Of a stretch of 17,360 nt of DNA, positions 1 to 14,358 are shown piece by piece. Source of the DNA: a virus. Lineage: Duplodnaviria > Heunggongvirae > Uroviricota > Caudoviricetes. The notes under the pieces are model-generated. The model was given only the letters and a program-made list of their open reading frames with translations, was not told the DNA's origin and made no database searches. The stretch lies in the IMG/VR virus record IMGVR_UViG_2645728010_000005; one strand, 5' to 3'. Position 1 is the stretch's first letter. Every line of letters begins with the position of its first letter. The position numbers and the translations under genes were made by a program.

Positions 1-273
1 ATGTCAACCGGATTACGTTTCACACTGGAAGTGGACGGCCTGCCGCCGGATGCTTTTGCGGTGGTTTCCTTTCATCTGAACCAGTCACTCTCTTCGCTCT
101 TTTCCCTCGATCTCTCCCTGGTCAGCCAGCAGTTTCTCTCCCTTGAATTTGCGCAGGTGCTGGACAAAATGGCCTACCTGACGATATGGCAGGGCGATGA
201 AGTACAGCGCCGGGTGAAAGGCGTGGTGACCTGGTTTGAACTCGGGGAGAACGACAAAAACCAGATGCTGTAG
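1..273 (+). pseudogene. 5' fragment (~90 codons) of a VgrG-like gene (T6SS spike / Rhs-associated Vgr family)
   Basis: ORF 1..273 translates MSTGLRFTLEVDGLPPDAFAVVSFHLNQSLSS..., which I recognise as the conserved N-terminus of enterobacterial VgrG proteins (normally >600 aa). The frame stops at TAG 271..273, where tail-fibre homology on the opposite strand ends. Confidence 0.45.
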
Positions 274-4200: not shown

Positions 4201-4494
4201 ATGAAAAAAATGTTGTTTTCTGCCGCTCTGGCAATGCTTATTACAGGATGTGCTCAACAGACGTTTACTGTTGGAAACAAACCGACAGCAGTAACACCAA
4301 AGGAAACCATCACCCATCACTTCTTCGTTTCGGGAATTGGACAGGAGAAAACTGTTGATGCAGCCAAAATTTGTGGCGGCGCAGAAAATGTTGTTAAAAC
4401 AGAAACCCAGCAAACATTCGTAAATGGATTGCTCGGTTTTATTACTTTAGGCATTTATACTCCGCTGGAAGCGCGTGTGTATTGCTCACAATAA
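4201..4494 (+). CDS. bor: Bor lipoprotein (serum-resistance, lysogenic-conversion protein)
   Basis: ATG 4201 with AGGA upstream; 97 aa MKKMLFSAALAMLITGCAQQTFTV... with lipobox LITGC. Near-identical to lambda Bor; opposite strand to the lysis genes, as in lambda. Confidence 0.9.
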   Translation: MKKMLFSAALAMLITGCAQQTFTVGNKPTAVTPKETITHHFFVSGIGQEKTVDAAKICGGAENVVKTETQQTFVNGLLGFITLGIYTPLEARVYCSQ

Positions 4495-4525: not shown

Positions 4526-4987
4526 CTATCTGCACTGCTCATTAATATACTTCTGGGTTCCTTCCAGTTGTTTTTGCATAGTGATCAGCCTCTCTCTGAG
4601 GGTGAAATAATCCCGTTCAGCGGTGTCTGCCAGTCGGGGGGAGGCTGCATTATCCACGCCGGAGGCGGTGGTGGCTTCACGCACTGACTGACAGACTGCT
4701 TTGATGTGCAACCGACGACGACCAGCGGCAACATCATCACGCAGAGCATCATTTTCAGCTTTCGCATTAGCTAACTCCTTCGTGTATTTTTCATCCAGTG
4801 CAGCAACATCACGCTGGCGCATCTGCATGTCAGTAATTGCCGCGTTCGCCAGCTTCAGTTCTCTGGCATTTTTGTCGCGCTGGGCTTTGTAGGTAATGGC
4901 GTTATCACGGTAATGATTAACAGCCCATGACAGGCAGACGATGATGCAGATAACCAGAGCGGAGATAATCGCGGTTACTCTGTTCAT
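4526..4987 (-). CDS. rzpD: Spanin, inner-membrane subunit Rz (i-spanin)
   Basis: [55 protein letters not shown]..., 153 aa with an N-terminal TM helix. The ATG overlaps the endolysin stop (ATGA). Confidence 0.85.
4585..4767 (-). CDS. rzoD: Spanin, outer-membrane lipoprotein subunit Rz1 (o-spanin), embedded in the +1 frame of Rz
   Basis: 60 aa [24 protein letters not shown]... with lipobox VVGC and a proline-rich core ([15 protein letters not shown]); lies entirely inside Rz. Confidence 0.8.
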
Positions 4988-5481
4988 TGCTGACCCCACA
5001 AACAGATTTCACGCTCAATCTCACGACGAGTCATGAGACCTTTCCATTGCTTACCGCCAGCATATGTCCAGCGACGTAGCTGATCACATGCGCCTTTGAT
5101 ATCGCCCTGGTTTATTTTGCGAAGAAGCGTCGATGTTCTGAAATTGCCAGCGCCCACGTTGTAAACGAACGAGTAAAGAGCGCCGCGCGTTGTTTCCGGT
5201 ATATCAACTTTTATGTACGGGTTAATTTGTCTGGCGACCGTGGCAAGGTCTTTATTCAGGAGGGCTTTGCATTCTGCTTTGGTATACGTTTTACCGAGCA
5301 TGATGTCTTTTCCTGTATGCCCGTGACATACAGTCCATACACCAACAATATCTTTGTATGGTATGTAGCTGACACCTTCCAGACCATCGTTACCACTTGG
5401 GCCAGTGATTAACACTGATGCTATAGCAATTGCTCCGCCACCAATAGCAGCAGCAACGGCTTTTCGTAATGATGGAGGCAT
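4984..5481 (-). CDS. rrrD: SAR endolysin (phage 21 R-type lysozyme with N-terminal signal-anchor-release domain)
   Basis: 165 aa; the N-terminus [27 protein letters not shown] is a weakly hydrophobic Gly/Ala-rich SAR segment, followed by a lysozyme-like body. Matches DLP12 RrrD / phage 21 R as I recall them. Confidence 0.9.
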
Positions 5482-5696
5482 TATTCACCTCTCGCAGCCT
5501 TGCGCTTATCTTCTTTAATCTTGAAATAAAGGTTTGTCAGGTACGTCAGCAGGCCAAATACCAGGCTACCCAGCACACCTATTGCTGCCCACTGTGAGGG
5601 CGTGACTTTATCGAGCAGCTGTAAAAACCAGTAACCGGCACTACCTGCTGAGGTGCCATAGGCGACACCCGTTGTTAACTTATCCATGGATTTCAT
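5481..5696 (-). CDS. essD: Class II holin / pinholin (phage 21 S-type) with dual-start motif M-K-S-M
   Basis: ATG 5696 with SD GAGGTG; 71 aa [71 protein letters not shown] with two TM segments. The track ORF start at 5741 is a TTG extension. Confidence 0.85.
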
Positions 5697-5911
5697 AACC
5701 CCACCTCGCAGACAAAGCGGGTGTAAATTGAGGGAATACAACGTATCGCAAAAAAGCAGAAACGTAACAGACTCGGAGTCAGTGAATAACTCAGGTATTG
5801 AGTTATCAGCTAATATCGAGACTCAAAAAATGGAAAAACCAGCTCGACGGCGGGTTTAAGCTGTGTGACGAAGTAACCACTCTTAACAGCATAACCAATT
5901 TTTTACGTACG

Positions 5912-6048
5912 TAAACCACTGAATGATATTTATGAGAATGCTACCGAGTGTTCAAAACACCACCACAAATATATAAGAAAACCTCAACAAATAACCAATA
6001 AATAATTTCCGGCGTTATTTTTAGTTGATTTAAATTAAACCACTGAAT
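5912..6048. repeat. 13-bp direct repeat TAAACCACTGAAT at 5912..5924 and 6036..6048 in the AT-rich porin upstream region
   Basis: Read directly from the sequence; both copies lie in the non-coding region 5742..6284. Confidence 0.6.
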
Positions 6049-6918
6049 TATAGAACCCCCATAAATAACAGCCATTAATATAAATTAGCTAATAGGTTTA
6101 TTTTTGTTCAAATAAGAGCCATAAATAGGTTTCGATAGAAAAAGTTCAGATAAAAATAGAGATCTACTTCACAAATTAAATGAGAAACTAAAACTTACAT
6201 CTTGAAATAATCACATTGATTAGATGAATATTTATCGCGCAGTGACATCATTTTTTAATAATAGTTCAAAAAAAAGGGCTCACGATGAAAAAATTAACAG
6301 TGGCAATTTCTGCTGTAGCTGCATCAGTACTGATGGCGATGTCTGCTCAGGCAGCTGAAATTTATAATAAAGACAGTAACAAGCTGGATCTGTACGGGAA
6401 AGTTAATGCCAAGCACTACTTTTCCTCTAACGATGCAGATGATGGTGATACTACTTATGCCCGTCTTGGCTTCAAAGGTGAAACCCAAATCAACGATCAA
6501 CTGACTGGTTTCGGTCAGTGGGAATATGAATTCAAAGGCAACCGCGCTGAATCTCAAGGTTCCTCCAAAGACAAAACCCGTCTTGCATTTGCAGGCCTGA
6601 AATTCGGTGACTACGGCTCAATCGATTACGGCCGTAACTACGGTGTAGCATACGACATCGGTGCGTGGACTGACGTTCTGCCAGAATTCGGTGGCGATAC
6701 CTGGACCCAAACAGATGTGTTCATGACTGGTCGCACCACTGGTGTTGCAACCTATCGTAACAACGACTTCTTTGGTCTGGTCGATGGCCTGAACTTTGCT
6801 GCTCAGTATCAGGGTAAAAATGACCGCACTGACGTAACTGAAGCCAATGGTGATGGTTTCGGTGGTGATGCTGCCAACTTACTGATTTAGTGTATGATGG
6901 TGTTTTTGAGGTGCTCCA

Positions 6919-7194
6919 GTGGCTTCTGTTTCTATCAGCTGTCCCTCCTGTTCAGCTACTGACGGGGTGGTGCGTAACGGCAAAAGCACCGCCGGACATC
7001 AGCGCTATCTCTGCTCTCACTGCCGTAAAACATGGCAACTGCAGTTCACTTACACCGCTTCTCAACCCGGTACGCACCAGAAAATCATTGATATGGCCAT
7101 GAATGGCGTTGGATGCCGGGCAACTGCCCGCATTATGGGCGTTGGCCTCAACACGATTTTACGTCACTTAAAAAACTCAGGCCGCAGTCGGTAA
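6919..7194 (+). CDS. insA: IS1 InsA (transposition inhibitor / N-terminal part of the transposase)
   Basis: 91 aa [43 protein letters not shown]... with a zinc-finger CxxC...CxxC; canonical InsA. Confidence 0.9.
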
Positions 7195-7616
7195 CCTCGC
7201 GCATACAGCCGGGCAGTGACGTCATCGTCTGCGCGGAAATGGACGAACAGTGGGGCTATGTCGGGGCTAAATCGCGCCAGCGCTGGCTGTTTTACGCGTA
7301 TGACAGGCTCCGGAAGACGGTTGTTGCGCACGTATTCGGTGAACGCACTATGGCGACGCTGGGGCGTCTTATGAGCCTGCTGTCACCCTTTGACGTGGTG
7401 ATATGGATGACGGATGGCTGGCCGCTGTATGAATCCCGCCTGAAGGGAAAGCTGCACGTAATCAGCAAGCGATATACGCAGCGAATTGAGCGGCATAACC
7501 TGAATCTGAGGCAGCACCTGGCACGGCTGGGACGGAAGTCGCTGTCGTTCTCAAAATCGGTGGAGCTGCATGACAAAGTCATCGGGCATTATCTGAACAT
7601 AAAACACTATCAATAA
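7113..7616 (+). CDS. insB: IS1 InsB reading frame (expressed as the InsAB' transposase by -1 frameshift)
   Basis: 167 aa ...[28 protein letters not shown]...; canonical InsB, overlapping insA in the -1 frame. Confidence 0.85.
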
Positions 7617-8153
7617 GTTGGAGTCATTACCGGTTTCGGTTTCTCCACTACTTATGAGTATGAAGGATTCGGCGTGGGTGCAACCTATGCTAAATCAGAT
7701 CGCACTGACGGTCAGGTCGCCTATGGTAAGAGCAAATTCAATGCCTCCGGCAAAAATGCGGAAGTATGGGCTGCAGGCCTGAAATATGATGCGAACAATA
7801 TCTATCTGGCTACCACATATTCTGAAACTCAGAATATGACCGTTTTTGGTAATAACCATATTGCAAACAAAGCACAAAACTTTGAAGCAGTAGCACAATA
7901 TCAGTTTGACTTCGGTCTGCGACCATCTGTTGCTTACCTTCAGTCAAAAGGTAAAGACCTTGGTGTTCATGGTGACCGAGACTTAGTCAAGTATGTCGAT
8001 GTCGGTGCTACTTACTACTTTAATAAAAACATGTCCACTTTTGTTGATTACAAAATCAACTTAATTGACGATAGTAAGTTTACCAAAACAGCTGGTATTG
8101 ATACCGACGACATCGTCGCTGTAGGTCTGGTGTATCAGTTCTAATCTGATTAC

Positions 8154-8194
8154 GAAAAAGATATGTTGCGGGAGGCTTTGCCTCCCCAACATAT
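8154..8194 (-). terminator. Intrinsic terminator on the minus strand (candidate tR' of the late leader); its hairpin also sits 17 bp after the porin stop on the plus strand
   Basis: Stem ATATGTTG-(C)-GGGAGGC / GCCTCCC-CAACATAT (8161..8194, loop ttt), followed on the minus strand by CTTTTT (complement of 8155..8159). Confidence 0.5.
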
Positions 8195-8282
8195 AAGTGG
8201 CTCCCTCAAGCCACTTCCTTTAGAAGCACAACCTTGCTTCTAACTATATAAACCTTCTGTTATATATTACCCTTTATTTTTG

Positions 8283-8316
8283 GGGGCGTCTCAACGCCCC
8301 ATTTTTAATAATTTTT
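8283..8316 (+). terminator. Plus-strand intrinsic terminator
   Basis: GGGGCGT-ctca-ACGCCCC hairpin (8283..8300) followed by ATTTTTAATAATTTTT. Confidence 0.4.
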
Positions 8317-8333
8317 AGTAAACAATTGGCATA

Positions 8334-8717
8334 TTAATTAGAGTTATTAACAACGATATCCATCTCTAACCGGATATCTAATGCCATTAACATCCCTTCA
8401 ATTATGCCCTCAGCCTTCTGTAACCTTTTCCCGATATAACCATCAGAGCAGCAATGCTTACCTGCCAGTGACATGAATGTCATACCGACTACATAATAAT
8501 CTACTAATAAATCATGCAAATCGCTGTTGTTCTTTTTCAGACGGGCCATGCACCCGCAAATGATCATCGCGTCATCGTCACAACATTGTGGGCGAGATTT
8601 TACTTTTGAAGGAATTAATCCCTTAAAACCGGCGGCAATGGACGACCAGGTCACATCTTCATGATTATTAGCCGCCCACGCTCCCCAACGCTCAAGAACC
8701 ATCTGAATATCACGCAT
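8334..8717 (-). CDS. quuD: Late-gene antiterminator Q (short, DLP12 QuuD-like)
   Basis: ATG 8717; 127 aa [24 protein letters not shown]... with a Cys-rich zinc-binding region ([16 protein letters not shown]). The track ORF has a 5-codon upstream extension. Confidence 0.85.
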
Positions 8718-8802
8718 CAACTTACTCCACAAAACTCAGACCAGAACGCCAATTACAAGCAAAAATCAACAAAACAGTATTAGTTGATTGTTATCTCTGA
8801 CT

Positions 8803-12244: not shown

Positions 12245-13771
12245 TTAGAAATAAATCTCACCATCAACCATATATTTGAGAGCACTTATCGCCTGCTGGG
12301 CGGATATTACTTTCATTAAAGGATAGTGTTTAAAAACAATGCCATTCATAAAATAGATATCACAGGTTTTATTATCCGTATTAATTATGATTTTTTCGAA
12401 TGTTTTATAGGCAAGTGTACGGCATAACTCTCGTCCATTTTTACTGGTTAAGTCAATAGCATAAAAATCACTGAATGAATTTACACCTTTACTCTTCAAA
12501 GTTTTCAATGATACCGAAGCCCTTCGTAATTCCTTATCTAATAGTCTTATTTTCTCTGCTATAGCGGTAACTTCAGGCGCGACAGACAATGCAACGATTA
12601 AATTATTAATTTTCATCTGAAGCTCAATAATTTTTAACTCTAAAGTTTCATTAGCATCTTTCTTGTTTTCAACTGGTTGAATTTTGCTACAATTAAAAAG
12701 CAATTCATTAATGATATTATAATCAACCAAATCTCTTTTTATTGATGGCCTGTCACATCGATGTAATCTTCTCATCGGACAAACATAATAGCCATGCAAA
12801 CTTCCAGATACCGCATGAACAATCATGGTATTACCACAAGCCTCACACTTCATAACTGTTCGAAGTAGATTTATTAGCATAGGATTCTTGCTACTATTGC
12901 TAATACCAAAAGGTGCCAACCGAATTTCCTGTACAGCGTAAAACAAATCATCTGATATGACTCTGGGATAATAGCCAGCGATTTCACTTATCCCTTTCCC
13001 TCTTGCACGATATGAAGGTACGCATATACCTATCAGAGCTTTATTCGCTAATAATTTTTCAATTACAGAAGGTCCCCATGCACTTTCTTTTCCTGAGAAA
13101 TTCTTTACAGCATGATCATTTAAATACTTGGCTATTGCATTCAATGAGCGCCTTTCCATCCTGAGTTTAAAAATTAGCTCAATAGTTTTCACCCTGTCGG
13201 GGTCTGGAACAAAAGCCGTTCTTTTGTCATCTAAGGAGAGCCATCTCGGACAAGACGCCGTCATAATCGTACCTGATTCCAGTGCATCCTGCCGTTTTTT
13301 CTTCCATGATAATTTAACCCGACTTGACTTTATCTCGCTTTCTTCATTTGCCCTTTGTGCTATAAGTATGGCTTTTATTAATGAATATGGCTCATTCAAA
13401 GAGTCAATATTATAGACTGTATTGTCGCAAAGAGTTATAACATCAATACCGTGATTCAAAATCAATTTCAGACGTTCAATCGCTTCACCGACTTTTTCTC
13501 TTGAAAGTCTGTCCAGACTTTCAACTAACAATGTAGTTCCTGGCAATATATAACCATGCTCTATAGCATCTAAAAATTCCGAAAAAGCTCCTGATTGTGC
13601 ATGCTTTCCTTTGAATGCACTTAATCCTAAATCTTCATATGTTATGGTATCAAGATAATAATCACTATTTACCTTTAACCATTCAGCAATAAGTCTTCTC
13701 TGTCGGTTTAATGAGTCGCCAGACATCTGACCTGGTGATGAAAATCGCATATATGCTATGGCTTTTTTCAT
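12245..13771 (-). CDS. ybcK: Large serine recombinase (resolvase-like catalytic domain, recombinase domain, Cys-rich zinc-ribbon region)
   Basis: 508 aa; N-terminus MKKAIAYMRFSSPGQ carries the catalytic-serine motif of serine recombinases; Cys cluster CEACGNTMIVH...YYVCPMRRLHRCDRP; coiled-coil-like C-terminal region. Confidence 0.85.
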   Translation of the reverse strand: MKKAIAYMRFSSPGQMSGDSLNRQRRLIAEWLKVNSDYYLDTITYEDLGLSAFKGKHAQSGAFSEFLDAIEHGYILPGTTLLVESLDRLSREKVGEAIERLKLILNHGIDVITLCDNTVYNIDSLNEPYSLIKAILIAQRANEESEIKSSRVKLSWKKKRQDALESGTIMTASCPRWLSLDDKRTAFVPDPDRVKTIELIFKLRMERRSLNAIAKYLNDHAVKNFSGKESAWGPSVIEKLLANKALIGICVPSYRARGKGISEIAGYYPRVISDDLFYAVQEIRLAPFGISNSSKNPMLINLLRTVMKCEACGNTMIVHAVSGSLHGYYVCPMRRLHRCDRPSIKRDLVDYNIINELLFNCSKIQPVENKKDANETLELKIIELQMKINNLIVALSVAPEVTAIAEKIRLLDKELRRASVSLKTLKSKGVNSFSDFYAIDLTSKNGRELCRTLAYKTFEKIIINTDNKTCDIYFMNGIVFKHYPLMKVISAQQAISALKYMVDGEIYF

Positions 13772-14025: not shown

Positions 14026-14358
14026 TTAATGTGGTGTGCTTCGTGACAATAAATTAATAACCAACACACCGGCACAAATCAACATCATGCCTATAATGGC
14101 TGGCAGGTCCAGCCGTTGGCCGAAAAATCCCCATAACAGTAAGCTAATCAGGACAATACCGACTCCTGACCAGATACCATAAGCAATCCCTGTAGGAATA
14201 TAAGCCAGCGTCTGAGCTAATAACCAGAATGATGCACAATAACAAATAATTGTACCAACAGATGGCCATAACCGTGTAAAACCTTCTGAAAACTTCATTA
14301 AGGTTGTACCAATGACCTCTGCAAGTATTGCACCACCAAGATAAATATAAGGGTTCAT
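14026..14358 (-). CDS. emrE: EmrE small multidrug resistance (SMR) efflux transporter
   Basis: ATG 14358; 110 aa MNPYIYLGGAILAEVIGTTLMKFSEGFTRLWPSVGTIICYCASFWLLAQTLAYIPTGIAYGIWSGVGIVLISLL..., four TM helices with the conserved membrane Glu14. The track ORF has an 18-codon upstream extension. Confidence 0.95.
   Translation of the reverse strand: MNPYIYLGGAILAEVIGTTLMKFSEGFTRLWPSVGTIICYCASFWLLAQTLAYIPTGIAYGIWSGVGIVLISLLLWGFFGQRLDLPAIIGMMLICAGVLVINLLSRSTPH

Follow-up and report, generated by a model that had tools for sequence, protein, structure and literature searches.

The lysogenic-conversion (Lc) porins are porins of lambdoid phages and prophages, and the classical example is that of phage PA-2. 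The DNA analysed here is a stretch of 17,360 nucleotides (the window) in which such a gene is interrupted by an IS1 element. The porin genes of phages ev017, ev207, 2G7b, Perceval and PhiR11_1 are uninterrupted and lie in complete phage genomes, whereas that of the window is split. Phage ev017 resembles the window in gene order and strand, with a Q-like antiterminator gene (-), the porin gene (+), the holin-lysozyme-Rz genes (-) and a Bor-like gene (+), and its DNA is 96.8% identical to the window over 4.5 kb. In Escherichia coli K-12, nmpC of the same prophage, DLP12, likewise lies between quuD and essD in the opposite orientation and is silenced by a single IS element; the K-12 locus differs in that the element is IS5B (1195 bp), located 58 nt from the nmpC 3′ end, and in that the restored K-12 NmpC has 365 aa and is 90.7% identical to the B allele. 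An IS1 insertion in the E. coli B^E nmpC gene was reportedly first described by Prilipov et al. in 1998. Several other publications that mention nmpC gave no information on the insertion of B strains.

Reactivation of the E. coli B gene has been observed in experimental evolution. When REL606 ΔompF carrying a high-activity TEM β-lactamase was propagated, a 777-bp IS1A segment was lost from nmpC in all six sequenced clones, and PCR of frozen population samples showed that the excision was fixed by the seventh transfer (bioRxiv 10.64898/2026.08.19.745717). RT-PCR detected full-length nmpC mRNA only after excision and not in the REL606 ΔompF ancestor, and a change in cefotaxime susceptibility after excision was attributed to higher drug permeability (bioRxiv 10.64898/2026.08.19.745717). 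The primers used in bioRxiv 10.64898/2026.08.19.745717 matched the window exactly at 6285-6305 and 8123-8144, indicating that the study concerns the porin gene of the window, and the 777 bp correspond to IS1 (768 bp) plus one copy of its target repeat (9 bp). nmpC::IS1 of E. coli B is thus already known, both from annotation and from experiment. Every B-strain RefSeq record lists the locus and its reversal has been shown, so it has little value as a discovery; its relevance is practical, BL21 and REL606 being workhorse strains.

The DLP12 prophage of E. coli B and its interrupted porin gene

The entire window was 100% identical to positions 533908-551267 (minus strand) of E. coli BL21(DE3) NC_012971.2. 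The 2.3 kb around the insertion were likewise 100% identical to BL21(DE3), and other BL21-type strains matched as well. The window coincides exactly with DLP12, extending from the left end of the prophage to the intD stop codon beside the tRNA-Arg gene. The RefSeq annotation gives the order porin pseudogene half, IS1A, porin pseudogene half, all located between quuD and essD-rrrD-rzpD; nmpC::IS1 of DLP12 in E. coli B (BL21/REL606) is the same locus as that of the window, with no differences. REL606 and other non-BL21 B strains have the same porin::IS1 but show two indels relative to the window and a different left end. The extra sequence in REL606 amounts to ~870 bp and ~273 bp, at 2583/2584 and 14653/14654 of the window, and a counterpart of window positions 1-266 was absent from the REL606 stretch compared. 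The ren gene of BL21 is annotated as truncated. As in K-12, DLP12 also carries host-type cargo genes, namely ybcK (recombinase family; 12245-13771), emrE (SMR multidrug efflux; 14026-14358) and iss/bor (serum-survival lipoprotein; 4201-4494). The features of the interrupted gene and of the element are as follows.

6285-6863, + strand: 5′ part of nmpC, codons 1-193 including the signal peptide (RefSeq 'porin, pseudogene, missing C-terminus')
6855-6863: left copy of the 9-bp target-site duplication, GGTTTCGGT (direct reading)
6864-7631, + strand: IS1A, 768 bp, in the same orientation as the porin gene (RefSeq 'IS1-like element IS1A family transposase')
6864-6886 and 7609-7631: terminal inverted repeats of IS1A, 23 bp, imperfect (18/23 complementary)
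6919-7194, + strand: insA, 91 aa, zinc-binding and helix-turn-helix N-terminal part of the transposase (matches to NF033558 and NF050000)
7113-7616, + strand: insB frame, an ORF of 167 aa, coding for the catalytic portion of the transposase (NF033558, 145.6 bits, cutoff 100)
7170-7176, + strand: A6C (AAAAAAC) programmed -1 frameshift site (RefSeq 'programmed frameshift')
7632-7640: right copy of the 9-bp target-site duplication, GGTTTCGGT (direct reading)
7641-8144, + strand: 3′ part of nmpC, codons 194-360 and stop, with C-terminal Phe (RefSeq porin pseudogene 'missing N-terminus')

A preliminary description of this DNA had reported a complete IS1 with insA, insB and the A6C site, flanked by a perfect 9-bp duplication, in a porin gene whose single reading frame, ending in Phe, is restored by excision. 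Each of these points held on re-inspection. A scripted check of the window gave GGTGATGCTGCCAACTTACTGAT as the 5′ end and ATCAATAAGTTGGAGTCATTACC as the 3′ end of IS1A, and slippage by -1 at the A6C site yields an open 232-aa InsAB′ transposase (6919-7616) with zero stops. In the NCBIfam model NF033558 (IS1 transposase), InsA covers profile positions 1-81 and InsB positions 75-199. The element thus shows the features of the IS1 family, i.e. a length of ~768 bp, imperfect inverted repeats of ~23 bp (GGTRATG...), frame fusion at A6C and a 9-bp duplication; its sequence is intact, and the IS1A copy of strain E100341 is 100% identical to it. The two flanking repeats showed zero differences, while the chance identity of two given 9-mers is 4^-9 (about 4e-6). 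One further GGTTTCGGT occurs in the window, at 6507-6515 within the porin gene, where it codes for another Gly-Phe-Gly motif, indicating that the target 9-mer is a repeated porin motif and is not unique as a site.

IS1 splits the nmpC coding sequence at codon 193/194. The interrupted frame runs on through 8 codons of IS1 to a stop at 6888-6890, and since the gene is split and only this 201-aa truncated product is left, the porin is silent. In-silico excision of the 777 bp joined 6285-6863 to 7641-8144 in an ORF of 1083 nt, a multiple of three, without frameshift or internal stop, whose translation of 360 aa ends in VGLVYQF. The restored protein was assigned to the NCBIfam subfamily NF007841 'porin OmpC' over residues 8-360 (521.2 bits vs cutoff 484), and its residues 24-360 aligned with residues 1-343 of OmpC 2xe2 (E = 6e-137) and cover the entire mature chain of the solved OmpC, OmpK36, PhoE and OmpF structures. 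With its N-terminal signal peptide, its collinearity with solved 16-strand porins and its C-terminal Phe, it fits the general bacterial porin family. The exact 360-aa protein was present in at least 1000 public contigs, labelled 'porin OmpC' or 'outer membrane porin protein LC', so the restored sequence is identical to intact alleles in other genomes and phages and the flanking frame is intact, as had been proposed.

The restored protein was 100% identical in 13 phage records (42 records had any match), and the lambdoid phages encoding the identical porin comprise ev017, ev207, 2G7b, Perceval, PhiR11_1 and others. The attributes of Lc/NmpC porin genes were also found: the gene lies on the opposite strand between the Q and holin genes, and an identical gene is present in complete temperate phages. 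The identical porin and the same layout in lambdoid phages make 'lysogenic-conversion porin', the term used in the preliminary description, a fair label.

Taken together with the distribution described below, the interruption almost certainly goes back to one IS1A copy that transposed into nmpC of DLP12 in an ancestor of the B lineage, silencing the porin in a manner that can be reverted by loss of 777 bp. The proposed event would be a single transposition into codon 193/194 of an OmpC-like lysogenic-conversion porin gene of a defective lambdoid prophage, with the usual 9-bp target duplication, and would date to the ancestor of the E. coli B lineage.

Empty sites and distribution of the insertion

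A 240-nt query across the restored junction showed that the junction is uninterrupted in 946 of 5,426 complete E. coli genomes. The comparison with strains carrying the uninterrupted allele, which the preliminary description had put forward as a check, was made with E. coli C. It showed that the prophage segment of E. coli C equals the window minus 777 bp, with collinear flanks and 0 mismatches in 5,240 bp, and that its empty site has one copy of GGTTTCGGT. The identity at all 5,240 positions indicates a simple insertion whose flanks have been unchanged since.

These data also bear on whether IS1 might instead be a rearrangement scar, left by recombination of two IS1 copies or by cointegrate resolution, that joined unrelated porin fragments. 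E. coli B has many IS1 copies, at about 28-29 places per genome, and deletions caused by IS1 are frequent there, which would lend such an origin some plausibility. However, the element is flanked on both sides by a perfect 9-bp duplication, the joined ORF is a widespread intact allele, and in E. coli C the sequences from either side of IS1 lie next to each other with 0/5,240 mismatches. The collinearity with this empty site refutes the rearrangement, which is left with practically no chance of being correct, and favours a single transposition into an intact nmpC.

A 240-nt query for the left junction detected the exact porin/IS1 junction in 39 of the 5,426 complete E. coli genomes, all 39 of them laboratory strains of the B lineage. 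The carriers include the BL21 family, REL606, B, ATCC 11303, NCTC10537, AS19 and the C2566/C3029/NEB strains, and among the 5,426 complete genomes searched the porin/IS1 junction was not found in any non-B genome. On these genome sequences, the insertion is a marker of the B lineage. Because it is common to REL606, BL21, ATCC 11303, NCTC10537 and AS19, it arose before the B sublines diverged. Of the earlier wording 'relatively recent, simple insertion', 'simple' is thus borne out by E. coli C, while 'recent' applies only in a relative sense, as the event predates the split of the sublines. Chance or an assembly artefact as the source of the junction was ruled out by its identity in 39 independently assembled complete genomes.

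In four BL21-derived assemblies (Rosetta2-DE3, BL21-RIPL, BL21(DE3) CP081489 and BL21(RP)), only the first 174-175 nt of the 240-nt junction query were matched. This suggests a truncated or collapsed IS1 in these assemblies, possibly an assembly artefact.

As the rest of nmpC is undecayed, losing IS1 together with one repeat copy (777 bp) recreates the wild-type allele. Precise excision of IS elements occurs by slippage or recombination between direct repeats; the inverted ends help, and transposase is not required. The excision from nmpC would likewise make use of the 9-bp repeats on either side of IS1.

The late transcript and the lysis cassette

The element had also been described as lying on the antisense strand in the path of the Q-dependent late transcript. 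The features that bear on this are as follows.

8334-8717, - strand: quuD, the DLP12 Q-type late antiterminator gene (RefSeq annotation)
8161-8194, - strand: G+C-rich hairpin with a T-run behind it, at the end of a strongly structured leader downstream of quuD
4526-5696, - strand: lysis cassette, with essD at 5481-5696, rrrD at 4984-5481 and rzpD at 4526-4987

The geometry agrees with that description: quuD and essD-rrrD-rzpD are on the minus strand, and the porin gene and IS1 between them are on the plus strand. The porin gene and IS1 would accordingly be antisense to the Q-dependent late transcript, which would cross both to reach essD-rrrD-rzpD; the agreement is one of geometry only. Folding of the minus-strand RNA from 8335 to 8140 showed four or five stable hairpins, with an MFE of -66.9 kcal/mol (z = -6.67 vs shuffled sequence). 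QuuD probably acts on this stretch (8140-8335, minus strand), which would be the promoter-proximal leader of the late transcript and its terminator, and we infer that 8161-8194 is a tR′-like terminator of the late promoter-proximal transcript. On the plus strand, a hairpin and T-run at 8283-8300 resembles the porin gene's own terminator.

A consensus promoter/terminator scan of 5400-8800 gave 4 terminator-like sites vs 3.4 in shuffled sequence, i.e. no excess. Because it gave no signal above shuffled sequence, the scan argues neither for nor against IS1 being polar on the late strand. The lysis cassette of K-12 is reportedly under the control of a Q-type antiterminator, RpoE and Hha, and its cloned regulatory region, from -121 to +650, served as a promoter reporter (PMC7918800). 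Given the RpoE control and the own promoter region of the K-12 cassette, read-through across the porin gene may not be the sole route of its expression.

The main effect of the insertion might conceivably fall on this opposite strand, with IS1 exerting a polar block on Q-dependent late transcription, or modulating it, and thereby altering expression of the lysis cassette in B strains. The layout invites such a reading, as quuD is followed by the structured leader with its terminator-like hairpin and then by 2.6 kb of antisense porin and IS1 sequence before essD, and phage ev017 has the same arrangement without IS1. It is nevertheless improbable, since Q-modified RNA polymerase resists terminators, and K-12 tolerates the even larger IS5 in the same path. 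The RpoE control of the K-12 cassette and its assay from its own cloned regulatory region count against a polar block too, and the terminator-like sites, being without excess, do not speak in its favour. Silencing of the porin itself by the split in nmpC is the preferred account of what the insertion does.

Repeated insertions at the porin locus and the latent porin

B strains are probably without OmpC, so that nmpC::IS1 can be regarded as a latent porin that comes back via the 777-bp excision once OmpF is removed. Absence of the major porin OmpF selects for such revertants. Latent NmpC matters for porin-deletion expression hosts, for permeability studies and for evolution experiments. IS1 has the same orientation as the porin gene, so that transcripts started at the porin promoter can presumably run on into insAB′; in K-12, read-through from upstream host promoters raises IS1 transposition (PMC12428005).

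Other insertions were found at or near the same gene. In strain 3359 (a blood isolate from Houston), an IS1B splits the same porin gene at nt 716, equivalent to window positions 7768-7776, with the duplication GGGCTGCAG; this copy (L004 2757-3524) is independent, 99.0% identical to the IS1 of the window and in the same orientation. In E100341 (human stool, Gambia), an IS1A (L003 4461-5228) lies at the quuD stop codon, between quuD and the downstream leader, at the equivalent of window positions 8328-8336, with the duplication GGCATATTA and in the same orientation as the IS1 of the window. That E100341 shares the insertion of the window was considered and rejected, since its porin gene is intact and its IS1A is located at the quuD stop codon, indicating a separate event. 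The K-12 derivative BM28 carries an IS10R at porin codon 44. The porin locus has thus been struck repeatedly by IS elements, namely IS1A, IS1B, IS5B and IS10R.

This recurrence, with independent IS insertions at the locus in K-12, 3359, BM28 and E100341, raises the question of whether the insertion was positively selected, for example through loss of a surface receptor for a phage or colicin or through lower permeability, and forms together with precise excision a recurrent reversible switch rather than neutral decay. The rapid selection of the excision reversion in a ΔompF strain is consistent with this. On the other hand, 946 genomes retain the intact junction, IS-rich laboratory strains should by chance alone acquire insertions in prophage genes that are not essential, and the remainder of DLP12 is visibly decaying, as its pseudogenes indicate; selection of the insertion is therefore unlikely, if still worth considering. 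Considerably more doubtful is a broader speculation in which IS insertion and excision would constitute a recurrent selectable porin switch with NmpC as a reserve porin, and in which IS1 might also tune transcription of the lysis cassette in BL21-type strains. If it were true, a reserve porin would be unlocked upon loss of the major porins, and the tuning of Q-dependent or antisense transcription by IS1 would affect autolysis or vesicle formation in BL21-type production strains. An IS1 was also seen to adjoin this porin sequence in JKHS006.
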